From a virus (Duplodnaviria; Caudoviricetes): DNA of 64,000 nt. The DNA lies in the IMG/VR virus record IMGVR_UViG_3300021167_000088, positions 1,699 to 65,698 of that record. One strand, given 5' to 3'. Of this stretch, positions 14,273 to 48,334 are shown piece by piece. The translations under genes and the position numbers were made by a program. Every line of letters begins with the position of its first letter. The first letter of the stretch is position 1. Below the pieces are notes generated by a model. That model saw only the letters and a program-made list of their open reading frames with translations. It was not told the origin of the DNA and made no database searches.

Positions 14273-14508
14273 TTCGTTTCTCCTTCAATCGTAGAGCTGT
14301 TCAGAGCCGAGTAGCCGAGCGCTTCGAGAACACGTTCGATACACTCTTCGCCGTTGGCGATACATTCGTATTTCTTGGTTTCTTGCCAGATACGGTAGCC
14401 GCTGTTGGAGCGCGGAACACCCCACACACCGCCTTCGTTGAGGTGTGAGATGAAGTCCGTAGTCCAGGCTTTCGCGGCCGCCATACCTTCAGGGGTGTCG
14501 AGAGTCAT
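14269..14508 (-). CDS. Hypothetical protein
   Basis: 79-aa ORF, ATGA-coupled to thyX. Confidence 0.6.
   Translation of the reverse strand: MTLDTPEGMAAAKAWTTDFISHLNEGGVWGVPRSNSGYRIWQETKKYECIANGEECIERVLEALGYSALNSSTIEGETK
14293..14306 (-). promoter_or_regulatory. CTCTGA-N4-CTCT motif
   Basis: Minus strand CTCTGA ACAG CTCT, about 20 nt before the 14272 start. Confidence 0.6.
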
Positions 14509-15215
14509 GATTTAGAGTCCATCAGAGCCGACCAGCCGACCGGAAACAAAGGTGCGACGATCTCAGCGATCTGCTCGGCGACTTCACGAGTCTCCTGCTG
14601 GGCGCCGGGCGCGAGGCGCTCGCGACAGACACGACAGAAGAACATCAGGCTGCCTGTCCATATCCACTCAGTCATCATGTTCTGCGGAAGGATCATGCGG
14701 GCTTGCTCGGGGGCGACGCCGGCCTCAAGCAGTTGCTCATAACAACGAAGTGACTGTGCAACAGAATCACTCGGTAGCACAAATGAATACAAATTCATTT
14801 GCTTGTAGGCTTCGAGATCAACCACACCCGACGAACCCTGCTTGGCATTGACCGGGCGACCGCGCCACACTTCGGGGAACCAGAACTCGGGTTCAGAATC
14901 CACGTAGCGGCGAGAGACTTCATTCCATACGCCACCTACCTGATGCTTGACGAGCTGGCGGGCAACGAAGATTGGTGCTTTAACGCGAAGCTGTATGGAG
15001 GTGTGAGCAAAGGGTGACCAGTGGTCGTGCTTGGCGAGGTAGTTGATGAGCTTGGCATCTTGGTCACTGAGTTTGTTAAACGGAAGGGCGTCAGGCTGGG
15101 TCCAGTATGTTTCCCACTCGCTCTCTTTGTCGAAGGAGACACGCGCTGCGTCGACAATGGTCAGGTCGTCGCCCATGTGCTTCCGATATTCGACTTTAAT
15201 TGCTGCTGTTTTCAT
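14505..15215 (-). CDS. thyX: Flavin-dependent thymidylate synthase
   Basis: IVDAARVSF, HWSPF, PIFVARQLVKHQVG, NEVSRRY, APEQARMILP. Confidence 0.95.
   Translation of the reverse strand: MKTAAIKVEYRKHMGDDLTIVDAARVSFDKESEWETYWTQPDALPFNKLSDQDAKLINYLAKHDHWSPFAHTSIQLRVKAPIFVARQLVKHQVGGVWNEVSRRYVDSEPEFWFPEVWRGRPVNAKQGSSGVVDLEAYKQMNLYSFVLPSDSVAQSLRCYEQLLEAGVAPEQARMILPQNMMTEWIWTGSLMFFCRVCRERLAPGAQQETREVAEQIAEIVAPLFPVGWSALMDSKS
14514..14527 (-). promoter_or_regulatory. CTCTGA-N4-CTCT motif
   Basis: Minus strand CTCTGA TGGA CTCT, 5 nt before the 14508 start. Confidence 0.6.
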
Positions 15216-15385
15216 GCTGCCACCGGTTCCTTTTCTTCTTCTTTAGGGGTACAGATCAAGACTAAGGCTCGTTCAACACCAAGCTAAGACTTGACTGCAT
15301 TGATGATTTCCGAAGGAGGAAGGTTAGCTGGCACTTGATAAGCTGCCAGCTTCCCGTCCTTCTGCCGTGCATAGGCGATGTTCAT
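15212..15385 (-). pseudogene. 57-codon gene broken by an in-frame TAG
   Basis: MNIAYARQKDGKLAAYQVPANLPPSEIINAVKS*LGVERALVLICTPKEEEKEPVAA; start coupled (TAATG) to upstream gene, end overlaps thyX ATG (ATGA); TAG at 15284-15286. Confidence 0.6.
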
Positions 15386-15840
15386 TACTTCAGCCCAAGA
15401 GCCTTGAGATCCGCATACACGTTCGCAACAACCGGGAGACCCGGTGTCGGCTTCTTCTTTTCATCGGCCATGTACTTGACCAACTCGGGAAGAGCCTCCT
15501 GAAGTTGCTTCAGTGTTTTGCAACCATTGGCAACGCTACGCAAGGAAACGATTGCCGCCTGACGCTTTTTGCAGGCTTCTTGATACTCAACGTAGATCGG
15601 CAGCTTTTCATAACTCTGCGAACCTGAGATCAGACTTTGACCACTGCCGTTGCCAAGATAAACCCAGCTTGTTTTCAAAACACTCTGCACCGCCGGATCG
15701 TCGTAAACTACCTTCACCGACGTAGCAAAGTTATCGTACAAAGCTTTTTGAATTTCTTCGTACGTCGGTTTCGTAGGTTCTGGCAGATCGTTACCCACAG
15801 CGCGAATGAAACAATCGCGTAAATAGTTGGTGAGTCTCAT
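15385..15840 (-). CDS. Putative Nmad5-like (nucleotide-modification-associated) protein
   Basis: MRLTNYLRDCFIRAVGNDLP...CKTLKQLQEALPELVKYM...LPVVANVYADLKALG resembles the Nmad5 family from memory; start 15840 overlaps upstream stop. Confidence 0.5.
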   Translation of the reverse strand: MRLTNYLRDCFIRAVGNDLPEPTKPTYEEIQKALYDNFATSVKVVYDDPAVQSVLKTSWVYLGNGSGQSLISGSQSYEKLPIYVEYQEACKKRQAAIVSLRSVANGCKTLKQLQEALPELVKYMADEKKKPTPGLPVVANVYADLKALGLK

Positions 15841-16079
15841 ACCGCGTTCTCGTTCAGCCACGCGAGTAGGCCCTGCTTGTCGGTCGGCACGTCGACTTCT
15901 TCGACCTCGACACGCGGGCGCTTGTTGGCCTTGATTTCCTTGAACGGCGCTTCGTATGCAATGCGAGTCTTGCGGGCGTCGGCCTGCGTGCCTTCAAACA
16001 TCGTCTTGACCTCGACTTCCCAGCCGTCAGTCGGTGACGGATCTACGTACGCCGGTGATGTGATCTTGTAGAGCTTCAT
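15837..16079 (-). CDS. Hypothetical protein
   Basis: 80-aa ORF with RBS (ggagaacc) and coupling to the next gene. Confidence 0.65.
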   Translation of the reverse strand: MKLYKITSPAYVDPSPTDGWEVEVKTMFEGTQADARKTRIAYEAPFKEIKANKRPRVEVEEVDVPTDKQGLLAWLNENAV

Positions 16080-16104
16080 GCTTGGTTCTCCAGTTGTAAG
16101 GTTT

Positions 16105-16224
16105 TCATTTCGTTTTCCTCAAGTATTCGTACACGCCGACAGTGATGACAACGGACGCTCCGATGGCAGCCACAGTCTTGTGGGTTATCAGAGCGATTTT
16201 CAGTACGTTGAGGAGCAGATTCAT
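16105..16224 (-). CDS. Small membrane protein (39 aa)
   Basis: MNLLLNVLKIALITHKTVAAIGASVVITVGVYEYLRKTK fills the gap between neighbours; hydrophobic. Confidence 0.45.
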   Translation of the reverse strand: MNLLLNVLKIALITHKTVAAIGASVVITVGVYEYLRKTK

Positions 16225-16242
16225 AGGCAGTGATAAGACATT

Positions 16243-16455
16243 TCAGTCCCTCCAGAGGGGTGCGTTACCTGAATGACCGATACGAGAAGCGCCTTTCTTC
16301 GCCATGCTATTTGCCGCCAAAGCGGCCTCCATCGTTGGCCGTGTACCGAGAGGGATATACTCTCGTTTTTCTTGCTTAGTGCCACCCTCGGTCACACGCA
16401 TGTGTCCGTACTCATACGCGTCACCGAGTTTGCGGCTGTACTTGATCTGGCTCAT
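16243..16455 (-). CDS. Hypothetical protein (70 aa)
   Basis: MSQIKYSRKLGDAYEYG...; ATG overlaps the amidotransferase stop; 3' part of track ORF 16243..16818. Confidence 0.55.
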   Translation of the reverse strand: MSQIKYSRKLGDAYEYGHMRVTEGGTKQEKREYIPLGTRPTMEAALAANSMAKKGASRIGHSGNAPLWRD

Positions 16456-17953: not shown

Positions 17954-18006
17954 AACTGGCTCCTATCAGATACCTGGTAATAATATGTAGTATATCAGAA
18001 TGCATC

Positions 18007-18020
18007 AGAGTATATCAGAG
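18007..18020 (-). promoter_or_regulatory. CTCTGA-N4-CTCT motif within a 4-unit 10-bp-period array
   Basis: Minus strand CTCTGA TATA CTCTGA TGCA TTCTGA TATA CTAC (18020-17987); contains extended -10-like TGATATACT. Confidence 0.65.
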
Positions 18021-18419: not shown

Positions 18420-18431
18420 GATGATTCCTTT

Positions 18432-18445
18432 AGAGTATTTCAGAG
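18432..18445 (-). promoter_or_regulatory. CTCTGA-N4-CTCT motif
   Basis: Minus strand CTCTGA AATA CTCT, directly before the RBS of the 18419 gene. Confidence 0.6.
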
Positions 18446-18447
18446 TT

Positions 18448-20577
18448 TCAAGCCGACATTGGCTCAATTGCTTCTTCTTCAACGGGCTTCACCATGAGGT
18501 TGTGCCACGTCGAAAGAATGGGTTTGTAATTCGTACCGTAGAAGACCTTCTTGGAAAGGAAGGCAGCGAGCTGCGGATAGTCGTTACGATTGGCAGGCAT
18601 GTTCAACCAACGGACAAAGTCCGAGTAGTGGAACGTGTTGCCTGTTGCTGCTTCGGGCTTCGTCCATGCCTGCAAGGCCCAGACGAATTCCAAATTCTTC
18701 ATGAAGGTCGAGGGATTTACCGTAGACTGGAACAGCCGGAACTCAGCGAGATCACCCTTCCAATTGATCGGACAATACTTACCTTTACCTTGGATCTTGA
18801 TCTGACGACGTGAAGTTCCACGCGTTGTGATACCACCGTGACGATGGTAGCAGTCACTGTTACCATAACTGATCGTGCCCACTTTGGTACGGTCAGGCGT
18901 CATCTGACCGATGCCTGTGTTGCCCTCAGGATGATAAATCTGATCCCGCTGAGCAACGGCGCGCACGAAGTTCACGTTGTCCGTCGAGGCGAGGAACATG
19001 GACATGCGAGCCTCGGCCAACGGTGAAAAGTAGCGACGATGCACGGTCACATGAATGCCATAACCAGCACCAGCCGGCTCGTTGTAGCCGACAGCACGGT
19101 GCTTCTTGAGAATCGCCAGCATGTTCGGCACCAGCGCATCCCACTCTTCACGACCGAAGGGCTGCGAGATCAGCTCGACACCACACTCATTGTCGAGCGA
19201 ACCGTCGCGTTCCAAGATCAGGGTGTCGGTGCTGTACTCGTCACGCAGCGTCTCGACGAGATAGCCACGATCCGGTGCATAGATCTCCAGCTCGACACCC
19301 AGCGTCGGCCACTTCTTCGATGTGTTGCGCTCGGTGAAGTTGCGTGGTGCGCAGTGCCAAGCTCGCAGCCCGTCAGACGTGTCACGATACTCGTCGTCCT
19401 CGTCGTCCTCGTCACGATAGCCTTCACCGTGCTCAGCGCGAAGATCGTCGCGGTCAATCTCGTCAGTGAAGTAACAACCTTCCCATTCGTAGAAATTAAA
19501 ATTTCCAAACTCACGTGTGCAGCAATCGTCCAGCGAGCCGTTATTCCAAGCACTTGTTGAATGATAAACGTGAAACGCACAACCGTTAGGAATGTACTCA
19601 CCCATGCACGAGGAGTATGTGAACTCGTTATCCACACAACTCTCGCAGATCACGTTGTCACTGCCATCCGTGCCGGAAGTATCACGAAGACCATAGTCAC
19701 CACAATGCGAGCATTGGATGACTTCATCACTATCAACGTGGCAGTAGACCCGCTCGGCCAAGCGCTGTGACAAACCACGAATAACGTTCAGATGATCAAT
19801 GACTTCTGAATACTCCTGCTGCTGAATCGCTTTCGCAACATCGTGCAGATACTTACGCAGTAGCACGATATAGCTTGCGCTGTGACCCCAACGATCTGTA
19901 TGAGAGTATTTCAGATTAGCACGAATGCGCTGGTTAAAAAGAGAAAGCCTGTCCTGACGATCACGTACCCATTGACGATGATGCGCATCGGCACGACCAG
20001 TCCGAGCAATATACGCAGCAGTCAGTTCCTGCGGCAACGTGCTCATGACTGGTGTGGGATTACCCCAAACGTCGTCGTGGTACTGCCTTCTAAAAATAAG
20101 AACGCTGCCTTGCGCATCGACATCGTTATTACGGTATTGCGTGTCGATAAAAAGACCTGTGTCCATCATTTGATTCCTTTCGAGAATTTCAGAGTCTGAG
20201 ACGTGATTAAAATATTGAACGTCGAGAGGCATCCGGCCGTACGTACCGCCCATTATTCGTGGGCGTGGGGCAGAGTTAGTTAAACGAACGACTCGGTCGG
20301 GGTTGTCTTGAGACAGATCGTTGTAATTGAGCCAGTCCGCTCGCTGACCTTGGATGCTAGAGCGAGGGTCTAAACGAATTTCCGGCAGGCGGGCTTCCAA
20401 GTGCTGAGTGAAGTGCGACCAATTGCAATTAAGCGCGTCAAGATAATCGTCGTGCATACTGTTAATTTGCTGCACAGACCATTGCATCCGATCGATGGTC
20501 TCTGCGGCCGTTAAGTTTGGCCGAGCTTCATTTCGGGCGGACGATGATTGTGGACTGGTTGAAGTCGAGTACAACAT
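18448..20577 (-). CDS. Putative amidoligase (COOH-NH2 ligase) with N-terminal Cys-rich zinc-ribbon region
   Basis: TLGVELEI, ERDGSL..GVELISQP, GYGIHV, KYCPIN, EFRLFQST; CSHCGDY and ICESC upstream; true start uncertain (may be 20488 or 20457). Confidence 0.8.
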   Translation of the reverse strand: MLYSTSTSPQSSSARNEARPNLTAAETIDRMQWSVQQINSMHDDYLDALNCNWSHFTQHLEARLPEIRLDPRSSIQGQRADWLNYNDLSQDNPDRVVRLTNSAPRPRIMGGTYGRMPLDVQYFNHVSDSEILERNQMMDTGLFIDTQYRNNDVDAQGSVLIFRRQYHDDVWGNPTPVMSTLPQELTAAYIARTGRADAHHRQWVRDRQDRLSLFNQRIRANLKYSHTDRWGHSASYIVLLRKYLHDVAKAIQQQEYSEVIDHLNVIRGLSQRLAERVYCHVDSDEVIQCSHCGDYGLRDTSGTDGSDNVICESCVDNEFTYSSCMGEYIPNGCAFHVYHSTSAWNNGSLDDCCTREFGNFNFYEWEGCYFTDEIDRDDLRAEHGEGYRDEDDEDDEYRDTSDGLRAWHCAPRNFTERNTSKKWPTLGVELEIYAPDRGYLVETLRDEYSTDTLILERDGSLDNECGVELISQPFGREEWDALVPNMLAILKKHRAVGYNEPAGAGYGIHVTVHRRYFSPLAEARMSMFLASTDNVNFVRAVAQRDQIYHPEGNTGIGQMTPDRTKVGTISYGNSDCYHRHGGITTRGTSRRQIKIQGKGKYCPINWKGDLAEFRLFQSTVNPSTFMKNLEFVWALQAWTKPEAATGNTFHYSDFVRWLNMPANRNDYPQLAAFLSKKVFYGTNYKPILSTWHNLMVKPVEEEAIEPMSA

Positions 20578-20923
20578 CTCGCTCAGTAATGCTGAGGGCG
20601 TATTTGCCCAGCTTGGGAAGTGTTACGTCATAACGAATCGGCTCCTTTTCAACGATTTTGTTTTTCAGTGCGTAGGCGTACCGCGCCATGGATTGTGACG
20701 CAGGGGTGGGGAATCGGTCGATCACGCCACGCCGCCACATGAAGCCCAAGGTATCGGAGAATTTATTCGTTGCGATCTGGACATCCTTCCCGAAGCGCTC
20801 CAAGGCAGCAGCCTTGACTTCGGGGGTGTCCATCAACTCAGCGCAAGTCATCATGTTGCTGGACTTGCTGAGCGTCCGCTCCAAGATTTCATAAATCTCG
20901 TCGCTAGAACGAATCTTTGTCAC
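20528..20923 (-). CDS. Hypothetical protein, possible winged-helix DNA-binding
   Basis: Helical N-terminus then SDTLGFMWRRGVIDRF and a beta hairpin; inference only. Confidence 0.5.
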   Translation of the reverse strand: MTKIRSSDEIYEILERTLSKSSNMMTCAELMDTPEVKAAALERFGKDVQIATNKFSDTLGFMWRRGVIDRFPTPASQSMARYAYALKNKIVEKEPIRYDVTLPKLGKYALSITERDVVLDFNQSTIIVRPK

Positions 20924-20948
20924 ACCTCACCTCGTGCATTACTTAGAT

Positions 20949-22154: not shown

Positions 22155-22198
22155 TGAACTGCCTCGTTGTTATTTGTTAGATAAAGTGGGTGTCATCG

Positions 22199-22485: not shown

Positions 22486-22719
22486 TTACGCGGCCGTCAG
22501 AGTGTCGACAACGGCTTGAGCGCCAGCTAACGCCTTGTCGGCAGCCTTGACCAGACCAGCTTGGGCCTTGTCTTCAGCAGCACGAGCCTTGGCGACAGCC
22601 TTGGCATCAGCGACCAGAGCCTTGACGGCGACTTGCGCAGCCTTCAGGACAGCCTTGGCTTCGACCAGAGCGGCCTTCTTTTCAGCGGGGGTAAGAACAA
22701 CAGACGGTTTGCGAGCCAT
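22486..22719 (-). CDS. Ala/Lys-rich basic protein (histone H1-like composition)
   Basis: MARKPSVVLTPAEKKAALVEAKAVLKAAQVAVKALVADAKAVAKARAAEDKAQ...; RBS aggag. Confidence 0.7.
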   Translation of the reverse strand: MARKPSVVLTPAEKKAALVEAKAVLKAAQVAVKALVADAKAVAKARAAEDKAQAGLVKAADKALAGAQAVVDTLTAA

Positions 22720-22759
22720 GAGATTTCTCCTTGTGTTATGGCGGGATGCTACGAAGTGA

Positions 22760-23705: not shown

Positions 23706-23732
23706 AAGACCTCCTTGTTAAACTGTGTTTTA

Positions 23733-23746
23733 AGAGACTTTCAGAG
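23733..23746 (-). promoter_or_regulatory. CTCTGA-N4-CTCT motif
   Basis: Intergenic, minus strand CTCTGA AAGT CTCT. Confidence 0.6.
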
Positions 23747-23752
23747 TTGAAG

Positions 23753-24211: not shown

Positions 24212-24250
24212 GTTTCAATTCCTTCCTCAGAGCGTTGAAGCTATTTTAAC

Positions 24251-24264
24251 AGAGTGTTTCAGAG
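24251..24264 (-). promoter_or_regulatory. CTCTGA-N4-CTCT motif
   Basis: Intergenic, minus strand CTCTGA AACA CTCT. Confidence 0.6.
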
Positions 24265-24273
24265 TGCGCAAGA

Positions 24274-26262: not shown

Positions 26263-26427
26263 CCTAAGTTAATTGGTGCCGACGAACCGGAGTTAACAAC
26301 CTCCGACTCGCCGGACTAACTGTCTCGTCGTTTCGCCGGTAGATCAGTCAGGCTAGGGAGATAACGAAAGGTCGCCCGACCTCTACTGCGTGTGTTATTA
26401 GCCCGACCTCACGCTGCGGTAGTCAAC

Positions 26428-28431: not shown

Positions 28432-28439
28432 ATACTCTT

Positions 28440-28679
28440 TCAGAGATTTTCAGAGTCATGTCCGCTCAATTCCAAAGTCAGGGCTGCGATGTCAGGTGTC
28501 CACTGATATTTAATGGCATTGCGTTTCTTTACCTCGCCAACGTGATGCACGTAGCGGTCAGACTCGGCGTCATAGCTCACCGAGTTGTAATTGGTTTCGA
28601 TCTTCACACCGTGTAAAAAACGCATGGTGAACTCATCAACACCAAATTCATTTGTCCTTGCTCGCGCCGGTGCGCCCAT
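28440..28679 (-). CDS. Hypothetical protein
   Basis: 79-aa ORF between the Cas4-like nuclease and HNH genes. Confidence 0.55.
   Translation of the reverse strand: MGAPARARTNEFGVDEFTMRFLHGVKIETNYNSVSYDAESDRYVHHVGEVKKRNAIKYQWTPDIAALTLELSGHDSENL
28442..28455 (-). promoter_or_regulatory. CTCTGA-N4-CTCT motif
   Basis: Minus strand CTCTGA AAAT CTCT(GA), 10 nt before the HNH start. Confidence 0.6.
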
Positions 28680-29801: not shown

Positions 29802-29815
29802 AGAGCCTTTCAGAG
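29802..29815 (-). promoter_or_regulatory. CTCTGA-N4-CTCT motif
   Basis: Fills the intergenic gap; minus strand CTCTGA AAGG CTCT. Confidence 0.6.
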
Positions 29816-30450: not shown

Positions 30451-32832
30451 TTACTTTACCTTCCTTAAAGTTGGCTTAGAGAGTTTCAGAGCCTTGGTTA
30501 ATTCTTGACGGAGATCGTCGGACATGACCCAGCGCACATCCATCCCGTAGGTCTTCTGACCGTTGTGACGGATCTGACGTGTCTCGATGCCGTTGTGGCG
30601 TAGCAGGCTGGTGAATTTGTTCGGTGTCACCGGCATAGAGCCAACGTTGTATTGCAGAATGATTTGCAGCTCGTCTCGTGAGACGGTGCCAACAGGGTTC
30701 TCGATAATCTCGCGAGCCAGCCGGCGCATGAGCATGCAGTAGGCTTGAGCATTCTGCGTGTGTTGTGTGACGATGCCGGAAGCGTTCATCAACTTCTCGT
30801 CCGGCATCGCCAGCCACAGTGTGTCGAAGTCTCCGTTGGTAACGGAGCGACACGTTTCCGTGATGCTGTTGACGGAGAGACGCGCAATACGATCACGGGC
30901 CTCGGTCTGCATCACGGTGTTCGCAGCTTGGATGTCAGCCTTGTGGGCCAGCAACCAAGCAGCAAAGTCTTCAAGCTCTTTGCTCACGATTTCGTCGTCG
31001 GGCCTAGCGAGCTTGCCGCCTTGAAAATTGCCGACGTTGTAGCGGCGATCAGTCTCTGGGATGTAAACAGGTCGCGGACGATTGGAGCTGAAAAGAAATG
31101 ATACGGTGTTGGGTACGTCAATAGTCTGTTGACGCATTCGACGTAAAGCCATAGTGGGTTCAGTGATGTAATTGCGCAGCTTAGCTGTGACTTTTCCTTG
31201 CTCTTTGAAATCATCTACGTCGACCTCGTCAATAAATACGAACAACTTGCCTTCCAAGAAACCGTTGAACTGGTCTTCAACACTGCTGACAACCACGCTC
31301 ATGGAATTCTTGGCACCGAGCAACTTCATTGCAATCTTGTTGACGAAGTAGCCTTTACCCGTACCCTCAATGCCGTGGGCTACCCACGCAGTAAGGGGTT
31401 TGGTTTTGCGTTGAAAAATGCACGCGAACCAGTTAAGAAAGTGTTCCACCAGCTTGTCGTCTTCGGCGACTCCTTCAACACAGCCGAGCATGTGCCGGAC
31501 GATTCCTTTAATCGTCGGGAACGTGGCTTCGGCGTTGGGGGTGACGGACATGTACGGTGTTGGTACGAATTGATTGATGCGGTGTCCTTCTTCATCAACC
31601 ACCCATGTTCCGTGAACGTCGTAGACGATGTCCCAGATAGGAATGAATTCACCAAGCACACGACCATGACTACGCATCCAGTGATCGAGCTGAGTTTCAT
31701 TCTTCGCACGATACAGATCCAAGGATTGCTTCGTCGGATTCCACAGGCCGTTGTAATACTCGGCGGATTTTAAATCACGGAAGGCGAGGATCAGGTCACC
31801 GTCGATGGTGGGGGTTGCGTTCAGAACATCACGCGACTCGACGAGTGACTGGTAGTAACCGGGAACGAGTTCCTTGGTCTTGTACCAAGCGTCGGACTTG
31901 AAGTCATGGATCAGTTCAAAATTGTCCTTAGCATGCCAGTAAGCCCAACTATCGCCGCCATTGAGATTGAGGCGGATGAAGTCACCAGAGTCACGAACAC
32001 TAGTGACCGTACAAATATCTGGCTTGTTGTGTACTTCACAGGTGCCAATGATCGTAGTCTTGGCGGTACGGACAGGTAGCCCTTCTGCTTTGCGGAGACG
32101 GTTGAGTACGCTCCGTTCTGTAGTCTTGAGTGCATTGATGTGTGCTCCACCTATGCGTTGAGTGGGAATCTTGGCCAGCTTCTTTTTGACCAGAGTAATA
32201 CGCTGCTTGCCGAGTGGGTCTTTGATACCTTTGCCGAAGATCGGCGTGGCGATGTACAGCAGCTTGTCGTTCTGACAGGTGGTGATGTCTAGCGGCCAGC
32301 GCAGGATTGTCTTATTGCGTGACAATTCGAGCGAGTCTTCCAGATGCTTGAAGTTTAGATCCATGAGCCACGCCTTGTACTCAGGGGCGGGCATGAAGCC
32401 ATCGACCAGCATGAAGACGTGTGCGGACTGCGTACCTTCGGTGCCTGGCATGCCGTGCGAGGCGCTGTACTGTAGAACGTAGGACACATCACCCAGACCC
32501 ATGCGGATCAATTCACCGTCGATATTCGGTGCTTCATGGCGGTCAAAGTCGAGGCAGACCCAGTCGGATGTGGAGTCGGTAGAGGTGGTGCCTTTGCGCG
32601 ATTCAGTAACCAGATTTCGTGATAGCTGGCCTTTAACGAGGCAGTGGCCAAGATCGGCGTGGGTGATGATTGCATTGCAGAGTTCGGAGATGGTCTTGAC
32701 TTCTTCCTTGTGGCTCGTGAACTTGCCTACGAGCGGGTAAGAGTCTTTAAGGATTGCGCCGTTTTCGGCGTAGAAGCGCTTGGTCAGAGGAACGGCGGGT
32801 GCCGTTGCCTCTAAAAAGTACACAGTCGTCAT
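30451..32832 (-). CDS. AEP primase-polymerase fused to SF3 (D5-like) helicase
   Basis: CLDFD, QYSASH, SAHVF (AEP motifs); HGIEGTGKG Walker A, FVFIDEV Walker B, FLFSSN motif C. Confidence 0.88.
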   Translation of the reverse strand: MTTVYFLEATAPAVPLTKRFYAENGAILKDSYPLVGKFTSHKEEVKTISELCNAIITHADLGHCLVKGQLSRNLVTESRKGTTSTDSTSDWVCLDFDRHEAPNIDGELIRMGLGDVSYVLQYSASHGMPGTEGTQSAHVFMLVDGFMPAPEYKAWLMDLNFKHLEDSLELSRNKTILRWPLDITTCQNDKLLYIATPIFGKGIKDPLGKQRITLVKKKLAKIPTQRIGGAHINALKTTERSVLNRLRKAEGLPVRTAKTTIIGTCEVHNKPDICTVTSVRDSGDFIRLNLNGGDSWAYWHAKDNFELIHDFKSDAWYKTKELVPGYYQSLVESRDVLNATPTIDGDLILAFRDLKSAEYYNGLWNPTKQSLDLYRAKNETQLDHWMRSHGRVLGEFIPIWDIVYDVHGTWVVDEEGHRINQFVPTPYMSVTPNAEATFPTIKGIVRHMLGCVEGVAEDDKLVEHFLNWFACIFQRKTKPLTAWVAHGIEGTGKGYFVNKIAMKLLGAKNSMSVVVSSVEDQFNGFLEGKLFVFIDEVDVDDFKEQGKVTAKLRNYITEPTMALRRMRQQTIDVPNTVSFLFSSNRPRPVYIPETDRRYNVGNFQGGKLARPDDEIVSKELEDFAAWLLAHKADIQAANTVMQTEARDRIARLSVNSITETCRSVTNGDFDTLWLAMPDEKLMNASGIVTQHTQNAQAYCMLMRRLAREIIENPVGTVSRDELQIILQYNVGSMPVTPNKFTSLLRHNGIETRQIRHNGQKTYGMDVRWVMSDDLRQELTKALKLSKPTLRKVK
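30478..30491 (-). promoter_or_regulatory. CTCTGA-N4-CTCT motif
   Basis: Minus strand CTCTGA AACT CTCT at the primase 3' end, 29 nt before the 30448 start. Confidence 0.6.
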
Positions 32833-32865
32833 ATGGAATTACCTCGGGTTGAACTAAAGTTTATC

Positions 32866-32879
32866 AGAGTCCGTCAGAG
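32866..32879 (-). promoter_or_regulatory. CTCTGA-N4-CTCT motif
   Basis: Upstream of primase; minus strand CTCTGA CGGA CTCT(GA). Confidence 0.6.
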
Positions 32880-32914
32880 TTGCAAGGACGGGAACTGACC
32901 CGAGAGTCAGTAAG

Positions 32915-36401: not shown

Positions 36402-36499
36402 TGTGCTTTCTCCCTTGTGAGGTGGTGGACAGTATCTGAGTATGTCAGAGTCGTCTACTCATTTTGGGTAAACGATTTACTCTGCCCGTAGTAAAGTTG

Positions 36500-36691: not shown

Positions 36692-37054
36692 TGTGCTTTC
36701 TTCCTTGTGAGAGTATGTCATAGAGGTAAACGATTACTGCGAATTAGATGAGGGTTTTCAGGCAGACCCTCGGCGCCTTTGCGATCATTCAGAGTGGTGA
36801 CGCTATCACTCCCAACGACTTAGCCTTCGTTGGCAAGATTCTCGACGCATGTGCGCTGGGCTATTCAGTTGATAGGCTGGTGGGCATCACGTGGTGCGCT
36901 TTAGCTCGTATGTCTGGTTTGTAGCCCTGTGAGATGTAGTAGGCGTGTTTGATGGTTTAGGTTTGTCTGATCAACTTCACATGATGTTTATCCTCATAGT
37001 GGTGTTGGCGCAGAATCATGGCTGCGGTGCCCATAGTAGTTTGTACGGCGTTTA

Positions 37055-37095
37055 AAGCACCTCGCACCTAGCCGAAGGCCAGGTGCGAGGTGCTT
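37055..37095 (-). terminator. Long hairpin after early gene
   Basis: 15-bp perfect inverted repeat aagcacctcgcacct/aggtgcgaggtgctt with inner C(UUCG)G loop on the minus strand; short U tract. Confidence 0.6.
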
Positions 37096-37098
37096 GGA

Positions 37099-38019
37099 TT
37101 ACGCGGTTGCTGCGTCTTTCTTGATACGGGTGCGCTTCGGTGCGACGGGTTCAGCAGGGACTTCGCAGGCCCGAGCCATGTCGTTCATCTGATCGCGGAT
37201 CTGCGCGTCGATGTCAGCCACGCTGGCGGTGGCACCGTTGATCATGTTGTCGATCTGGGCTTCCAGCTTGGCACGACGCTCGGCGAGACGCTTGGTGTCG
37301 ACACCGGCAACCTGCATCATCTGCATGATTGCTGCATAGTAGCCGGTCAGGCGATTGACTTTGTCCGTCGTGATTGCCGCGGCAAGTTCGTTGTCGCACA
37401 CGTCGTACATGGACTCAAGGCTGTTACCCACGCACTCACCCAGTGTGTCGAATTGACGCTCGACAGCGGCGTCGTCGTAAAGGTCTTTATCCGTCAGGTT
37501 GTTACCTGCTTCGAGACCCTCGAAGGTGCGCATATAGCCCTGCATGTCTTCGTCGACATTGAAGCTGTTGTCGGACAGCAAGCACTCGATTGCATCGACA
37601 GCCTGCTCACGCGTCTTGCGACGCTCGTCGTGTGCATTGATGGCTGCGTCGTAATACTTCTTGAAGTGCGCGGCGCTGCGTGTCTGGATGCACTTCGTGC
37701 GTGCCTCGCGGCAGGCTTCTTCGTGGACATCAACCACGCGCTCCAGACCAAGGGTCTTGCGCACGGCCGGGGCAGTCAGATCGAGGATCAGGCTGCTTGT
37801 GTTACAGTCCTCAGCCCACATACGCAGCGTGGCGAGTTGCACCATCGCATTGAAGTGGCGCTGGTTATCGCCGGACTTGGCCGCGAAGAGGTAGGAGTTA
37901 GCACTCCACACCAGCATGTTGGTCAGGCACGAGCGGATTTTCCATGCAGCGCCAGTTTTCTTGTCGAAATATTCGGCAGCATCTGCGATGAGGGACAGGT
38001 TGGTGATGATCTTGTTCAT
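37099..38019 (-). CDS. Hypothetical early protein (helical)
   Basis: MNKIITNLSLIADAAEYF...; RBS aaggac; basic C-terminal tail. Confidence 0.7.
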   Translation of the reverse strand: MNKIITNLSLIADAAEYFDKKTGAAWKIRSCLTNMLVWSANSYLFAAKSGDNQRHFNAMVQLATLRMWAEDCNTSSLILDLTAPAVRKTLGLERVVDVHEEACREARTKCIQTRSAAHFKKYYDAAINAHDERRKTREQAVDAIECLLSDNSFNVDEDMQGYMRTFEGLEAGNNLTDKDLYDDAAVERQFDTLGECVGNSLESMYDVCDNELAAAITTDKVNRLTGYYAAIMQMMQVAGVDTKRLAERRAKLEAQIDNMINGATASVADIDAQIRDQMNDMARACEVPAEPVAPKRTRIKKDAATA

Positions 38020-38065
38020 GGTTTTGTCCTTTCGAGACGTGAGTAGCGCGGATTGGCTACACAAC

Positions 38066-38100
38066 AGAAAATGAAGCCCCAGAGCACGAGGCTCTGGGGC
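38066..38100 (-). terminator. Rho-independent terminator
   Basis: GCCCCAGAGC-CTCGT-GCTCTGGGGC followed by TTCATTTTCT on the minus strand. Confidence 0.65.
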
Positions 38101-38105
38101 TGGAA

Positions 38106-38252
38106 TTACACAATTGCAACGAACTCAGTTCTGATGAGCACTGTCAGTCTTTCCCAGAAGTAATCTGAGCAATGACGGACGTTCCAGAGTGCCTCACTAG
38201 GTGAGTAACCATATGAACGCAGTAGTGCGTAAAAGCGGTATTTAGCTTTCAT
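38106..38252 (-). CDS. Small hypothetical protein (48 aa)
   Basis: MKAKYRFYALLRSYGYSPSEALWNVRH...; starts 2 nt after upstream stop. Confidence 0.5.
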   Translation of the reverse strand: MKAKYRFYALLRSYGYSPSEALWNVRHCSDYFWERLTVLIRTEFVAIV

Positions 38253-38254
38253 GG

Positions 38255-38452
38255 CTAGTTATCGAAGATCGGGTTGTACTTCGTACCCATGGGTTCAGCC
38301 TCGCTATACGATACGCGCTCGACTTCCATGATCTTGGCACGCTTGCAGCCATGGTTCTCGTCTTCACCGGGCATCGCTTCAAGCTCTTCCCAGTCTTCGT
38401 CACCCATGTTCATTGCAACGAGTTGCTCGACGGATAAATCGGTTTGCCACAT
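38255..38452 (-). CDS. Small acidic hypothetical protein
   Basis: MWQTDLSVEQLVAMNMGDEDWEELE...; RBS aggag. Confidence 0.55.
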   Translation of the reverse strand: MWQTDLSVEQLVAMNMGDEDWEELEAMPGEDENHGCKRAKIMEVERVSYSEAEPMGTKYNPIFDN

Positions 38453-38528
38453 GCTCACGATAAAACTCCTGTTGGTTAATAACGCCAACGAGAACAACTG
38501 CCCTGACCATAGGGTCAGGGCAGAGTTG

Positions 38529-38768
38529 CTACTTGCGGAACATCAGAGGGATGACGGTGCCGCATATAAGAGCAGCGCCTGTGGCAGCAAAGCCGCCGGA
38601 CATCGTGCCGCCATGCAGCTTGAACACAAGTATGAAGATGCCGATCTCTATGATCAGAGCGCCCCACTTGTGGGTCTTGAATTTCCAAGCCATCGATACG
38701 AGACCAAGCGTGATCACAAGCATGTAGATGAGCGGCTCCATCGAGCCATGGAAAAGGGTCATAGTCAT
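38529..38768 (-). CDS. Small membrane protein
   Basis: 79 aa with 2-3 hydrophobic segments; RBS aggag. Confidence 0.65.
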   Translation of the reverse strand: MTMTLFHGSMEPLIYMLVITLGLVSMAWKFKTHKWGALIIEIGIFILVFKLHGGTMSGGFAATGAALICGTVIPLMFRK

Positions 38769-38869
38769 AACAGCGTTCTCCTGAGTTTGTATGCAACGGA
38801 GAACAACGCCCTTGACTAAGAGGTCAAGGGCGAAATATTCATGTCAATGTCCTGAGAAACCGAGGACTG

Positions 38870-39310
38870 GGTTGTACCGAAACTGGAAATAAATATCGGG
38901 ACAAAATGGCTGATTTCGGGGTATTCAGTGTGGATTGCAAAAGTCAACAGGGTCGGAGAATTTATTTTTCGATGAAATTCATACGACTGTTTGACGTGTA
39001 AAACAGCAGGGAACAGCGGAAAACAGCCCGAATATCGGTACAATCGGTACAGATTTCGAGGTTTTGGGACAGGTTTTGGTACAGACTATTTGTTTAATAA
39101 TCATGTAGTTAACTACTATTTGTACCGAATGTACCAATATATAGCTAAGTTGGTATAAGGCCGATGAGATGTCCCATTTCACAATGTGAAATATGAGGGA
39201 CATGTCTGTTGTCTCCGCCAACTTAACCTACCCTGTTTCGGTACAAAAGTTGTCATATTTGACCACTTTGTCCTTAGAATCAAGGACTTAACCCTGTACC
39301 AATATATACC
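38870..39310. repeat. GG(T/G)ACA iteron-like cluster 2, candidate replication origin
   Basis: Non-coding AT-rich region with ~10 GG(T/G)ACA/TGT(A/C)CC copies in direct-then-inverted arrangement; ctatttgtaccgaatgtaccaatat at 39116-39140 is identical to 10802-10826. Confidence 0.6.
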
Positions 39311-39495
39311 TTGTCATATTTTATGACGTATTCCATGTGGGTAATGATGTTGGCATCACTATCCCGTTGGCATGTGCTCCGAACCAAGGACTTTGCCCTT
39401 AGTACGGAGCCTTTTGGGTAGCATGGCACTGAGTAACCCAGCGCCACACAACCCAACATACTTACCTTGCCCATAGAGATAGAGCTAAGCGGTTT

Positions 39496-39524
39496 TAGAA
39501 GTTGCCCCAACGGGGCAACTTCTA
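39496..39524. other. Perfect 13-bp inverted repeat
   Basis: tagaagttgcccc-aac-ggggcaacttcta just past the 39529 gene stop; no U tract on the minus strand. Confidence 0.5.
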
Positions 39525-39528
39525 AGGG

Positions 39529-39837
39529 TTAAGAGACGCCGTGCAGCTTTTCGAGGCGGTCAGCGTAACGTTGCGCCGTACGAAGCGCTTGCACCTTGCG
39601 CTCCTGCTCGCGGAAGTTCGTCTCCAGCGCGAACGTCTGCTTGGCATTGCCCCATGCACCTTTCAGTGCGCCGCCGACAGCAGCCGCGGTGTTGAGCGAC
39701 TGGCTGGCGAAGTCGGTGGCCATCTCGCGGATGGTCTCACCAGCGGTAGCCGGTGCAGCTTCGTTTGAACCGTTGAGGAGGAGAGCGATCAGTTCGTCGC
39801 GGGAAGAAACGGATTGTACGTTTTTGGCAGCAGCCAT
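39529..39837 (-). CDS. Hypothetical early protein
   Basis: MAAAKNVQSVSSRDELIALLL...; RBS aaggag. Confidence 0.65.
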   Translation of the reverse strand: MAAAKNVQSVSSRDELIALLLNGSNEAAPATAGETIREMATDFASQSLNTAAAVGGALKGAWGNAKQTFALETNFREQERKVQALRTAQRYADRLEKLHGVS

Positions 39838-39929
39838 GATAATGCTCCTTGAGTATGAGGCGGGATTGCCTACACCAACGAAAACAACAGCCCTGACCAA
39901 AAGGTCAGGGCTGATTAGTTAGCGACATG

Positions 39930-40028
39930 TCAGTTGAAAGCGACAGGTGTGTAAGGGTTGAGGATGAAGCCGCCTTCGGGGAGAAGCCGGCAGATGTATT
40001 GGACGTCGAAGATGTAGACGATGGTCAT
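39930..40028 (-). CDS. Small hypothetical protein (32 aa)
   Basis: MTIVYIFDVQYICRLLPEGGFILNPYTPVAFN; RBS ggag. Confidence 0.4.
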   Translation of the reverse strand: MTIVYIFDVQYICRLLPEGGFILNPYTPVAFN

Positions 40029-40322
40029 GATGTACTCCAAGGGTGATTGATACAATGGAGGACAACAGACCTGCGCAACGGCGCAGGTCTGAGTAGTTAG
40101 AGAGCTGCTGTTGGCGCGTAAGCGCACGCGCTAGCGGCACCACATCTCACTGAGGTGTTGCGCGCTGAGCGCGGGGTTTCGTTCATCACATCAGGGGTTG
40201 TAGGAGGCCGGTTTTAGGGACTCCTACCGGATTCGGGAATCCGAATCCGAAGTGGGGAGGTGCTTGATCCTGAGAGGGGAGGGGGTGGGGCGGCCGCAAA
40301 TCCACATAATAAATCTGAAGAA

Positions 40323-40336
40323 CTCTGATATACTCT
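40323..40336 (+). promoter_or_regulatory. CTCTGA-N4-CTCT motif
   Basis: ATCTGA AGAA CTCTGA TATA CTCT upstream of the first late-arm gene; contains TGATATACT. Confidence 0.65.
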
Positions 40337-40907: not shown

Positions 40908-40995
40908 GGTTCTAAATCCCAATGCCACCCACCCCTCTAATAGAATCTGAAATGCTCTATAATATTTTATAAATTTATTTCAGAGAACATGACGA

Positions 40996-43463: not shown

Positions 43464-43477
43464 CTCTGATATACTCT
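43464..43477 (+). promoter_or_regulatory. CTCTGA-N4-CTCT motif
   Basis: CTCTGA TATA CTCT immediately after the terL stop; another CTCTGA 20 bp later. Confidence 0.65.
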
Positions 43478-43501
43478 TGCGAACTCTGACAGGATGAAAC
43501 C

Positions 43502-46955: not shown

Positions 46956-46956
46956 C

Positions 46957-47943
46957 ATGGCTGTAGATATAGACAACCTCGAACTTCTTTCCCCGGCACC
47001 GGACATCGACAGCTTTGACCCGAAGGCGGGTGATCGCGGCGACATGCTTGTTGCCGACGAGCCGGACGAGGTCGTTGTGCCCGAAGTCGTCAAGGACGAT
47101 GTCGAAGAGCCGGAAGACGAGGTGGTTGAGCCGGAAGACGAGGAAGTCGTCGACGAGAAGACCCGTGACGAGAAGGGCAAATTCGCTCCCAAGGGAATCC
47201 CCAAGGCACGCTTCGACGAAGCCGTCGGCAAGGAGCGCGAGGCCCGTGAAGCCGCCGAGCGCCGCGCCGAAGCCGCCGAGCGTCAGCTCCAGGCTGCCGA
47301 GGCCCAGAAGGTCCAGACCACGCAGTTGAGCGAGTTGGAAGACAAGATCACCGAGATGGAGCAGAAGGCCGACGAGCTGCTGCTTGATGGCGACATCGTC
47401 GAGGCTGGCAAGCTGCGCAAGGAGATCCGCGCCACCGAGCGCCTGATCGCCCGTGCCGAAGCCGTCGAAGGCGCCCGCCAGAGCACGTCCAACGCGCTGG
47501 AGAGCGAGCGCTTCGACGTGGCGGTGCTGCGCCTCGAAGCGGATCACCCGGCGCTGAACCCGAAGTCCGACACCTACGACAGCGACCTCGTCGAGCTGGT
47601 GCTGAGCAAGCAGCGTACCCTGATGTCCCAGGAAGGCATGTCGCCGTCCCAGGCACTTACCTACGCCGCTGATAAGGTCATGGAGCGCTTCGGCACCCCG
47701 ACCCCAGTAGCCGAGGACAAGGAGGGGCTGGCGGCAGCCAAGGCGGCGGACCGCAAGACGACGCAGATCAAGAAGAACCTCGACACCATGAAGAAGCAGC
47801 CGTCGAACATGAAGGATGTCGGTATCGACTCCGACAAAGCCGGGCAGACCGGGCAGTTGCCGGACATCAAGAACATGACCCAGGACGAGTTCAACGCCCT
47901 GCCCAAGTCAACGCTGGCCAAGCTACGGGGAGACCTGCTGTGA
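46957..47943 (+). CDS. Capsid scaffolding protein
   Basis: Acidic N-terminus, RDEKGKF, IPKARFDE, coiled coil, MTQDEFNALP end; lies between portal and capsid. Confidence 0.75.
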   Translation: MAVDIDNLELLSPAPDIDSFDPKAGDRGDMLVADEPDEVVVPEVVKDDVEEPEDEVVEPEDEEVVDEKTRDEKGKFAPKGIPKARFDEAVGKEREAREAAERRAEAAERQLQAAEAQKVQTTQLSELEDKITEMEQKADELLLDGDIVEAGKLRKEIRATERLIARAEAVEGARQSTSNALESERFDVAVLRLEADHPALNPKSDTYDSDLVELVLSKQRTLMSQEGMSPSQALTYAADKVMERFGTPTPVAEDKEGLAAAKAADRKTTQIKKNLDTMKKQPSNMKDVGIDSDKAGQTGQLPDIKNMTQDEFNALPKSTLAKLRGDLL

Positions 47944-48242
47944 CCTTCTATCGCAAAAAACCTGTCGTTATTGAAGCGTTCCAAATGACAGAAGCGCGGC
48001 GTCAAGACAACAGCGAGTGGCCTGAGTGGTTGAATATCGCTTGGAACACTGACCATGCTAAAGCAGGGGCGATGTACCCGTTTGACTTCCCATATTCTGA
48101 TGGGAAGGACGAGTTGCTCATCGTCACGCTTGAGGGTCTGCATCGCGTCTCATTTGGCGATTACATCATCAAAGGTGTTCAAGGCGAGCTTTATCCGTGC
48201 AAGCCCGACATCTTCGAACTCACCTACGAGGCCGCGCTCTAA
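47940..48242 (+). CDS. Conserved phage hypothetical protein
   Basis: YRKKPVVIEAFQ...TLEG...GDYIIKGVQGELYPCKPDIFELTYE. Confidence 0.75.
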   Translation: MTFYRKKPVVIEAFQMTEARRQDNSEWPEWLNIAWNTDHAKAGAMYPFDFPYSDGKDELLIVTLEGLHRVSFGDYIIKGVQGELYPCKPDIFELTYEAAL

Positions 48243-48320
48243 GAATTTCGTAACGAAAGGAGGTGATCCAGTGTCTGCAGGAAAGAAACCTAAGCCTAAA
48301 TGCTAGTTGGTTGTTGCGGA

Positions 48321-48334
48321 CTCTGAATTGCTCT
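48321..48334 (+). promoter_or_regulatory. CTCTGA-N4-CTCT motif (triple array)
   Basis: CTCTGA ATTG CTCTGA TAGA CTCAGA at the start of the capsid gene leader. Confidence 0.65.

Follow-up and report, generated by a model that had tools for sequence, protein, structure and literature searches.

Probable promoters of an uncultured podophage as a variation on a known signal type, with an unusual CTCT repeat at each turn of the helix

In the middle promoters of phage T4, a MotA box at -30 replaces the -35 element and accompanies a sigma-70 -10 element, with both MotA and AsiA being needed, and in lambda the CII sites, TTGC-N6-TTGC, lie on either side of the -35 hexamer in three particular promoters. 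The middle and late promoters of the Thermus phage P23-45 are extended -10 promoters that the host holoenzyme reads, their spacer (-19 to -32) being thought to contact the beta' zipper and the Zn-finger of RNAP (PMC3950348). The stoperators of cluster A mycobacteriophages (the L5 gp71 sites) are read by a known immunity repressor; most of them are not associated with promoters, and some are true operators inside promoters (PMC6550527, PMC9283540). Here, we analysed a window of 64,000 bp, bases 1699-65698 of a viral contig of 65,698 bp, whose 141-bp terminal overlap indicates a circular phage genome of ~65,557 bp. Its relatives by portal protein, more than 320, are uncultured podophages of ~65-70 kb, which probably infect Betaproteobacteria.

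The first-pass annotation had reported 13 exact copies of CTCTGA-N4-CTCT, and all of them were recovered at the positions and on the strands that it gave, 10 on the minus strand (14293 to 32866) and three on the plus strand (40323, 43464, 48321). A 14th copy lies outside the window, in the remaining 1.7 kb of the contig, at genome position 1221 (plus strand), upstream of a 906-aa gene. The chance expectation of ~0.1 copies was reproduced with 100 dinucleotide shuffles (0.10 expected; 0/100 shuffles reached 13), and the reversed pattern gave 0 matches. Orientation was also as described, with 14/14 exact copies on the local sense strand, none antisense, and a flip with the arm. When one mismatch was allowed, 29 sites were found against 4.4 expected; 25 of them are sense, 3 are antisense, and 1 falls in the arm junction. 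Spacer length is fixed at N4, with 0 copies each of the N3 and N5 variants. The bare hexamer CTCTGA appears 46 times in sense and 4 times in antisense, with ~15 expected per strand, a bias that may in part come from codon usage. The description as an asymmetric direct repeat with a 10-bp period was borne out, and longer tandem arrays were found at 17997/18007, 28440/28450, 32856/32866, 40313/40323, and 48321/48331. Twelve sites of the window end 3-53 nt upstream of a start codon, as had been noted, the exception being 48321, located 237 nt upstream of the capsid start, and four (14293, 14514, 28442, 30478) do sit within the final codons of the preceding ORF. Conservation in related phages, proposed as a check, was confirmed. 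The motif is a real, genome-wide, transcription-oriented expression signal with a helically phased CTCT repeat. The sites analysed individually are the following:

14293..14306, minus strand: CTCTGAACAGCTCT, at the 3' end of ORF 14269-14508; a GTG start follows after 20 nt; no -10-like spacer.
14514..14527, minus strand: CTCTGATGGACTCT, within the 3' end of thyX; an ATGA start/stop overlap follows after 5 nt; no -10-like spacer.
17989..18020, minus strand: array of three units containing two full boxes, at 18009-18020 (CTCTGATATACT) and 17989-18000 (TTCTGATATACT), upstream of an HNH endonuclease gene (17468-17953).
18432..18445, minus strand: CTCTGAAATACTCT, with TGA-AATACT as a weak box, after the stop of a 709-aa ORF and ahead of the Shine-Dalgarno/ATG of the next gene, only 12 nt from the ATG (18419).
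23733..23746, minus strand: CTCTGAAAGTCTCT, weak box, 27 nt upstream of the ATG of gene 22941-23705.
24243..24271, minus strand: -35-like TTGCGC (24266-24271), unit CTCTGAaaca (24255-24264) and box CTC-TGT-TAAAAT (24243-24254), upstream of gene 23753-24211, whose Shine-Dalgarno is overlapped by an additional CTCTGAGGA.
28440..28455, minus strand: CTCTGAaaat plus CTCTGA, within the final codons of ORF 28440-28679, 10 nt upstream of an HNH endonuclease gene (28027-28431).
29802..29815, minus strand: CTCTGAAAGGCTCT, 3 nt upstream of the ATG of 29469-29798.
30478..30491, minus strand: CTCTGAAACTCTCT, within the primase-like gene at its 3' end, 29 nt upstream of the ATG of 30068-30283.
32856..32885, minus strand: predicted primase promoter with -35-like TTGCAA (32880-32885), unit CTCTGAcgga (32870-32879) and box CTC-TGA-TAAACT (32858-32869), the primase-like gene (30451-32832) having its ATG 26 nt past T(-7); the tandem pair also precedes the orthologue in L001.
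36437..36450, minus strand: one-mismatch box CTC-TGA-CATACT-CA, upstream of 35526-36401; first motif-type site past the early region.
36710-36723, minus strand: paralogous copy CTATGACATACTCT, upstream of 36500-36721.
40313..40336, plus strand: array with which the structural arm begins, ATCTGAagaa, CTCTGATATACT, CT, with a full box CTC-TGA-TATACT (40323-40334) 33 nt upstream of an EndoVII/HNH-like gene (40368); the orthologous array is kept in the closest relative.
40945..40958, plus strand: one-mismatch site ATCTGAAATGCTCT, 37 nt upstream of the terminase small subunit gene (40996).
43464..43489, plus strand: three-unit array just past the TerL stop, CTCTGATATA, CTCTtgcgaa, CTCTGA; box at 43464-43475, start predicted at ~A43483, third unit adjoining the Shine-Dalgarno of the DUF5856 gene (43502).
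48314..48342, plus strand: predicted capsid promoter with -35-like TTGCGG (48314-48319), spacer unit CTCTGAattg (48321-48330) and box CTC-TGA-TAGACT (48331-48342), then 7 nt and the conserved structured leader GCACCTACCTCGTGC (fold z = -2.4).

Most of the phased arrays contain an extended -10 element. Among 77 distinct 14-mer instances from relatives (the family logo set), which show the 10-bp phased array, TGnTAnnnT was found in phase in 47 (in unit 1, 40%, with ~5% expected; in unit 2, 25%, with ~0.3% expected), as it was in 7/14 arrays of the studied genome, while out-of-phase offsets of the 77 family arrays gave no signal. The looser TGnnAnnnT was present in 57/77 family arrays and 12/14 of its own. 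The enrichment of a -10 hexamer with T-12, A-11, and T-7 is 8- to 80-fold, in phase only. The 14 exact sites of the studied genome comprise seven with the full TA box, five with only TGnnAnnnT (spacers AAnn), and two with neither, and TG at -15/-14 is invariant in all 14.

The box was then surveyed in 1.44 Mb of sequence from dozens of uncultured relatives, in which more than 100 instances share the core CTC-TGn-TAnAnT. A search anchored on CTCTGnTAnnnT returned 109 distinct boxes versus 23 for the reversed pattern. Conserved in these 109 boxes are T-35 (71), A-13 (75), A-9 (89), C-6 (88), and T-5 (66), the predicted +1 favours A or C, and the base after TG is variable (A 75, G 14, C 10, T 10), as expected for TGn. 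TTG at a spacer of 16-18 bp accompanies 39/109 boxes (36%), compared with 1-6 in six shifted registers (~3%). Among the non-coding TGnTAnnnT boxes of the studied genome, the CTC prefix was present in 8 sense ones and in 0/27 antisense ones. Classic -35/-10 promoters showed no enrichment in this genome, and the box is not a common word in the candidate host genomes.

As to the position of the boxes relative to genes, 0/101 lie within 20 nt of a start preceded by a Shine-Dalgarno, and 26% lie 21-40 nt from a start, versus 4.7% of random positions. Arrays with a TA box are always at least 21 nt from the start, the closer exceptions being sites with a weak box or none. Counting against the promoter reading, four sites that end 3-12 nt before a start codon (29802, 14514, 28442, 18432) are too close to it to be promoters of the adjacent gene; at 29802, this is also because the spacer AAGG serves as Shine-Dalgarno, a case similar to one seen in the closest relative. 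At orthologous junctions, the fixed part is the box TGnTAnAnT. Five relatives keep CTCTGn-TAGAnT exactly 7 nt before the conserved leader at the capsid junction, and ~30 keep TGnTAnAnT 24-36 nt upstream of the ATG at the TerL-DUF5856 junction, where the CTC prefix has been lost in some and one has TTGACA-N16-TGtCATAAT. Distant relatives show ordinary sigma-70 promoters at the same places, those of G003 and G005 being ordinary extended -10 promoters with variable prefixes.

Anatomy, conservation, geometry, and gene-relative position of the promoters can be read directly from these comparisons, and we infer that the host holoenzyme initiates at the boxes and that early genes respond to different signals. 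On this evidence, the motif quite probably represents middle and late promoters with an extended -10 core, read by the host sigma-70 holoenzyme. The 14-mer would be a slice of a longer signal, in which CTCTGA provides C-18 to A-13 and NNNNCT the -10 hexamer, with TTG 16-18 bp upstream in about one third of the cases and a transcription start predicted ~7 nt downstream, at A or C. It could arise by two routes, either from a hexamer ending in CT followed by CT or from a second CTCTGA placed exactly one helical turn upstream, within the promoter spacer. As the phage has no detectable polymerase or sigma factor, the reader would be host RNA polymerase with its housekeeping sigma, and a product of the early phage genes may tip the balance towards promoters that do without a -35, as in P23-45. 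The resulting model, roughly TTG-N(1-2)-CTCTGA-N4-CTCTGnTAnAnT-N7-+1, is testable and would give a large family of uncultured podophages an annotation of transcription that it otherwise lacks.

As in P23-45, TG stands one base 5' of a TAnnnT hexamer, the -35 is weak or absent, the promoters precede middle and late genes, and the phage lacks its own polymerase (here, by domain searches). Unlike in P23-45, the predicted promoters have an invariant CTC prefix, C at -8, CT at -6/-5, and CTCT(GA) units in exact 10-bp register within both spacer and initially transcribed region, and a counterpart of gp39 was not identified. With T4 middle promoters they share a host -10 element and a phage-specific upstream word that marks phage promoters, but the extra unit occupies -28 to -23, within the spacer, and a -35-like TTG often accompanies it; they have no known activator. 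The lambda CII sites are likewise a 4-bp direct repeat of 10-bp period within a promoter, whereas here the repeats run from -28 to +8 and are found genome-wide. These predicted promoters are a variation on a known type of signal, of which the CTCT repeat at each turn of the helix is the unusual part. They would show a host-type promoter gaining a lineage-specific signature, by which the phage may distinguish its promoters from host ones.

Promoters for a phage sigma factor or a non-canonical RNAP, carried for instance by the 2757-aa virion protein or an early ORFan, are a very improbable alternative. The conserved CTC, C-8, and C-6/T-5 do exceed the sigma-70 consensus, candidate host genomes lack the word, which is specific to the lineage, and the 2757-aa protein and early ORFans have no assigned function. 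However, no phage RNAP, sigma, or repressor domain was found in the genome: searches for sigma-70 region 2 or 4 and for a match to any solved polymerase were negative, as was a six-frame search for T7-type RNAP, run without a positive control. Moreover, motif-bearing relatives do not share the early ORFans, the canonical geometry of -35 TTG, TG, and TAnnnT is present, some lineages keep the box without CTC, and in one the same junction carries a textbook sigma-70 promoter.

The annotation had likened the motif to the stoperators of phage L5, in which an immunity repressor bound at intergenic asymmetric sites blocks elongating RNAP during lysogeny. The likeness lies in asymmetric sites of ~13-14 bp, tens per genome, oriented with transcription and located at gene junctions on both arms, an anatomy shared by known stoperators (PMC6550527); stoperators number 20-30 per genome, and here there are 14 exact copies and 25 sense sites at up to one mismatch. 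Some sites are also too near start codons for a promoter role, and temperate ancestry is indicated by an integrase fragment here and intact integrases in relatives G001, G002, and G004. Against this, most sites here carry full promoter elements of the sigma-70 extended -10 type, whereas most stoperators are not associated with promoters, and the integrase is a remnant, with intact integrases also present in temperate, motif-free relatives. In addition, the early region (36800..40143, minus strand), composed of small ORFans and punctuated by GC-rich hairpins followed by TTGTTyTC, contains 0 copies in the scan at up to one mismatch, and the equivalent 3.7-kb gap of the closest relative is motif-free as well. 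Stoperator-type sites also act as operator of the early lytic promoter, and silencing of the early region would be required of an immunity repressor. No repressor was found: HTH_3 or S24 domains of repressor type were absent from the six frames of G000-G004, which cover the studied genome and motif-bearing relatives, and Pfam and PHROGs revealed none among the early ORFs or the suggested regulators (20528..20923, 11649..11828, 22486..22719), which found no support. Candidate 20528-20923 had no matches, 11649-11828 contains a marginal excisionase-like HTH adjoining the integrase fragment, and 22486-22785 is an Ala/Lys-rich coiled coil. We regard the stoperator reading as highly unlikely. The promoter model sets the hairpin-punctuated early region apart from the middle and late units.

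An RNA-level signal, either a processing site or the mRNA binding site of a translational regulator, had been suggested from the strict strand bias, and it could also draw on the nearness to ribosome-binding sites. CTCTGA often adjoins or overlaps a Shine-Dalgarno (CTCTGAGGA at -457 and 24227; 43484), and the spacer is itself the Shine-Dalgarno in three cases (29802, 14514, and 23085 in the closest relative). The strict N4 and the exact 10-bp register point instead to double-stranded DNA, no structure accompanies the motif (z +0.5 to +1.4), which also matches no Rfam family, and the -35 TTG and the fixed distance from box to leader start are promoter features at the DNA level. Furthermore, if the start lies ~7 nt past the box, the motif would be absent from that transcript. 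This reading is extremely unlikely.

Plain sigma-70 recognition does not account for the invariant CTC, C-8, C-6/T-5, and the flanking in-register units. CTCTGA-like units in register accompany 68% of the boxes (at -10 bp 34%, at +10 bp 31%, and at +20 bp 16%, versus a background of 0.5%), and CTCT(GA) units span ~-28 to +8 in exact 10-bp register (-28, -18, -8, +3); they form a real, selected layer. Such a phased repeat in the spacer and initially transcribed region is unusual, and may report contacts of RNAP with the spacer or a regulator. The units could be a binding array for a putative factor, and the nearest surviving form of the first-pass idea, compatible with the promoter core, is an operator array embedded in the promoters, where a phage or host protein bound to one helix face between ~-28 and +8 would repress or activate all middle and late promoters at once. 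We consider this reading possible but doubtful, and it is similarly unlikely that the factor is a small protein coating one face of each promoter and belonging to a family unrecognisable by sequence; if true, it would constitute a genome-wide switch built into promoters, a promoter-embedded counterpart of stoperators. Of the proposed control of all gene classes by one protein through tandem sites, the phased layer is compatible with the proposal, and the early genes, devoid of copies, are not; for the latter reason, the array cannot be an immunity operator set. No candidate protein emerged: early ORFans are not shared by motif-bearing relatives, and the small proteins that are conserved resemble a nuclease, a Dps-like protein, and a coiled coil. 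The motif and the presence of an integrase do not go together, and the gain and loss of 10-bp units could come from slippage between the CTCT blocks of the box. On the other side, relatives with integrases lack a canonical repressor and could thus have one of a non-canonical kind, the N4 spacing is strict, and sites 14293 and 14514 keep CTCTGA-N4-CTCT without a -10-like spacer. Divergent orthologues retain the third unit, (A/C)TCTGA, but differ in the bases interleaved with it, and the favoured spacer differs by genome, being TATA here and TACA or TAGA in relatives.

All 13 copies of CTCTGA-N4-CTCT reported in the window by the first-pass annotation were recovered with exact coordinates and strands, against 0.10 predicted from shuffles, and a 14th copy was found in the 1.7 kb outside it. 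The window spans bases 1699-65698 of an IMG/VR viral contig (65,698 bp) with a 141-bp end overlap, corresponding to a circular genome of about 65.56 kb. As had been proposed, the copies are oriented with transcription, 14/14 lying on the local sense strand, and 12 of the window sites end 3-53 nt upstream of a start codon. A scan allowing up to one mismatch detected 29 sites, 25 of them sense, against 4.4 expected, and no occurrence of N3 or N5 spacing variants was found. An exact 14-mer scan of IMG/VR returned mainly single chance matches and was of no use, and maximal-order Markov k-mer over-representation and strand-asymmetric 7-mers were swamped by codon usage and uninformative. In the whole genome, the heptamers TGCCAAT and GTGCCAA appeared 36-37 times in sense and 4-6 times in antisense orientation, a bias that may be a repeated peptide or codon-context effect.

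The phage is podovirus-like, with two arms that diverge at about 40.2 kb and converge at about 10.6-12 kb, the site of an integrase fragment:

Structural arm, plus strand: EndoVII/HNH-like, TerS, TerL, DUF5856, P22-type portal and capsid genes
End of the structural arm, plus strand: virion protein of 2757 aa
Replication arm, minus strand: primase-like, exonuclease, SNF2 helicase, DNA polymerase, ThyX, ligase and dCTP-deaminase-like genes
Also in the replication arm, minus strand: Nmad5, GATase and several HNH endonuclease genes

The minus arm opens with a 3.4-kb early region (36.8-40.14 kb) of small ORFans from which the motif is absent, and each of its genes has ahead of it a GC-rich hairpin and then TTGTTyTC. 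The hairpins are as follows:

40088-40060, minus strand: GC-rich hairpin, 10-11 bp
39913-39888, minus strand: similar hairpin
38832-38807, minus strand: similar hairpin
38523-38498, minus strand: similar hairpin
38101-38075, minus strand: similar hairpin

Each is followed by a TTGT(T/C)(T/C)TC-like tail and a small early ORF, two of the downstream leaders being paralogous (GTGTAGSCAATCC...TACTCA), and the hairpins may punctuate the early operon as terminators, attenuators or sites of RNase III-type processing. At the early/replication boundary, two consecutive genes are preceded by a duplicated promoter/5'-UTR block (36735-36690 and 36465-36392, minus strand; aatcgtttacc ... CT(A/C)TGACATACTC ... 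tcacaagg(a/g)agaaagcacaATG).

The nearest cultured phages are those of the Pseudomonas KPP25/phiR18 group, with a 45% identical portal and common synteny but without the motif; KPP25 was discarded as a studied model, as it too has no motif, and no promoter data on it were found in the literature. Among uncultured phages, more than 320 relatives were identified in IMG/VR by their portal protein, several with complete genomes of 65-70 kb; MAG bins of Rhodocyclaceae, Azoarcus and Sulfuritalea include some of them, and further-removed relatives are Burkholderiales prophages. The exact 14-mer is present in dozens of relatives (portal identity of at least about 58%), and its strand there is almost always that of the portal. 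In the closest relative (primase 60%, portal 80% identical) the motif is kept: 14 kb contain 15 sites with up to one mismatch tolerated, where 1.3 would be expected, and the arm flip and motif-free early gap are the same.

Pooling 77 distinct instances from relatives revealed that conservation extends in a 10-bp register, CTCTGA-YRnA-CTCTGA-yrnA-nTCn. An in-phase TGnTAnnnT was found in the first unit of 40% of these 77 arrays (about 5% expected) and in the second of 25% (about 0.3% expected), with no signal at out-of-phase offsets. A logo was then anchored on CTCTGnTAnnnT (109 distinct boxes, against 23 with the reversed pattern) and numbered from the transcription start predicted about 7 nt past the box, CTC-TGn-TAnAnT. 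It showed T-35 in 71/109 and T-34 in 48/109 boxes, CTCTGA at -28 to -23 in about 40-60%, varying by position, a core with A-13 in 75, A-9 in 89, C-8 in 63, C-6 in 88 and T-5 in 66 of the 109, and a +1 position with A or C. Of the 109 boxes, 39 had TTG at a spacer of 16-18 bp, compared with 1-6 for each of six shifted registers. Boxes are absent from the 20 nt next to Shine-Dalgarno-preceded starts; 26% lie 21-40 nt upstream of one, against 4.7% of random positions. In this genome, the CTC prefix is seen in 8 of the sense TGnTAnnnT boxes outside coding sequence and in 0/27 antisense ones, and classic -35/-10 promoters are not enriched. The motif sites are most likely middle/late promoters of the phage, of the extended -10 class, with the host sigma-70 holoenzyme as their reader.

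An ECF/sigma-E-type promoter, with TCTGA as its -10, was also considered and rejected, as there is no AAC-type -35, no upstream block is conserved at the distance such a promoter needs, and sigma domains were not found. Resemblances by eye to IHF, CRP, sigma-54, boxA and ops sites were dropped because the flanks of the motif show no conservation. At the TerL-DUF5856 junction, TGnTAnAnT is kept in about 30 relatives, 24-36 nt before the ATG, with the CTC prefix lost in some lineages and TTGACA-N16-TGtCATAAT in one; in two distant relatives, G003 and G005, the promoters are of the ordinary extended -10 kind and their prefixes vary. In candidate host genomes, the box is neither enriched nor a common word. 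Extended -10 phage promoters are already known, and the CTC prefix here is lineage-specific; no description of such a prefix, or of helically phased CTCT(GA) units in the spacer and initially transcribed region, was found in the literature.

This phased layer was detected at 68% of boxes as CTCTGA-like units in exact register (34% at -10 bp, 31% at +10 bp and 16% at +20 bp, against a background of 0.5%). Gain and loss of units proceeds 10 bp at a time, and arrays could be seeded if the box's own CTCT blocks slip against each other; the downstream CTCTGA-like unit is conserved across divergent orthologues, and array conservation suggests selection. The layer might reflect RNA polymerase contacts with spacer DNA, for which the beta' zipper/Zn-finger region has been named (PMC3950348), or a binding array for some factor.

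Not all sites fit this anatomy. Half of the exact sites (7/14) are without a full TA box, five having an A-rich spacer that keeps A-11 and T-7 and two neither. For four sites, just 3-12 nt separate the motif from a start codon, and at 29802 the spacer AAGG is a Shine-Dalgarno sequence, with a similar case in the closest relative. These too-close sites may act as weak internal promoters of genes further downstream, be decayed copies, or serve another purpose. Leaderless mRNAs would fit the geometry of 29802 and 14514, yet this reading was not adopted because of the G at -11 in 14514 and in the matching site of the closest relative, and the weak hexamer of 29802 (AAGGCT). Two one-mismatch copies (20181-20194 and 19903-19916, minus strand) lie within the 709-aa ORF 18448-20577; the first, followed by aaaggaatcaaATG, is near-identical to the 18432 site with its ribosome-binding site, so that this ORF may start at about 20168 or hold an internal start. 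In about 10 relatives, including L134 (1126), L152 (652) and G004 (23125), a strongly conserved 60-nt block, ggatgtCTCTGAttcgCTCTgacgattttaccagagttcgtcaga, 280-400 nt upstream of the portal gene, contains the 14-mer and a TCTGACG/CGTCAGA inverted repeat without a -10-like box, and is a different use of the word.

The motif had been read in the first-pass annotation as a stoperator network. Against the definition in PMC6550527, the sites agree in orientation, asymmetry and number, but not in promoter independence, in having a cognate repressor or in placing an operator at the early promoter, and the three proteins proposed as its readers (20528..20923, 11649..11828, 22486..22719) gained no support. 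An RNA-level signal, also suggested there, is unlikely, since the motif regions fold no better than shuffles and usually worse (z +0.5 to +1.4), have no Rfam match, and the -35 and spacing features belong to the DNA level.

Pfam, PHROGs, PDB sequence and six-frame HMM searches found no RNA polymerase, sigma factor or repressor-type domains, the PF00940 search having no positive control; a phage RNA polymerase was discarded after Pfam, PHROGs and PDB searches with every large protein, the 2757-aa virion protein among them, came back negative. The only profile matching the motif's distribution was an Rv2179c-like exoribonuclease (present in the relatives G001-G004, absent from G005 and KPP25), set aside because n = 6 and it has no DNA-binding role. 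A correlation of motif with integrase, apparently perfect in 6 genomes, was gone after 5 more, and no repressor was found next to the relatives' integrases. At the arm junction, a tyrosine integrase fragment (11450-11917, plus strand; 59 catalytic-domain residues match Pfam) overlaps a marginal excisionase-like HTH ORF (11649-11828, minus strand). The integrases that G001, G002 and G004 carry at this junction are intact, so this genome looks recently ex-temperate.

In Thermus phage P23-45, a small phage protein disables -35 recognition and extended -10 phage promoters stay active (PMC3950348). The strategy proposed here is similar, in that the host sigma-70 holoenzyme would initiate from extended -10 boxes upstream of middle/late genes. 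The sequence anatomy and the comparison among relatives are shown by this analysis, and we infer initiation at the boxes, its timing and any phage co-factor. The minus-strand cluster at 12437-17477 (dCTP-deaminase-like, ATP-dependent ligase, ThyX, Nmad5 and class-II glutamine amidotransferase genes) suggests a modified base in the phage DNA which, if present, could alter promoter reading.

At the capsid junction, CTCTGn-TAGAnT lies exactly 7 nt before a structured, conserved leader, an arrangement kept in five relatives. This leader (48343-48570, plus strand; about 230 nt upstream of the capsid gene), a candidate regulatory 5' UTR that had no Rfam match, opens with the conserved GCACCTACCTCGTGC where transcription is predicted to begin. 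The closest relatives share this beginning, and the initial portion of the leader folds significantly better than shuffled sequence (z = -2.4).

Four free-standing HNH/EndoVII-type endonuclease genes were located:

17468-17953, minus strand: HNH/EndoVII-type endonuclease gene
28027-28431, minus strand: HNH/EndoVII-type endonuclease gene
40368-40907, plus strand: HNH/EndoVII-type endonuclease gene
43822-44490, plus strand: HNH/EndoVII-type endonuclease gene

Three of the four identical copies of CTCTGATATACTCT, together with the 28442 site, are upstream of such genes, directly or one gene off, and the promoter cassette may travel with, or attract, mobile endonuclease genes. The motif is unlikely to be a homing-endonuclease target, since most sites do not adjoin HNH genes. 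Finally, 46 bp at 34025-34075, in which ARAGORN detected no tRNA, share 96% identity with the tRNA-Thr gene found in P1 and related phages and are a truncated tRNA remnant, with a CTCTGA copy just upstream (34105, minus strand).
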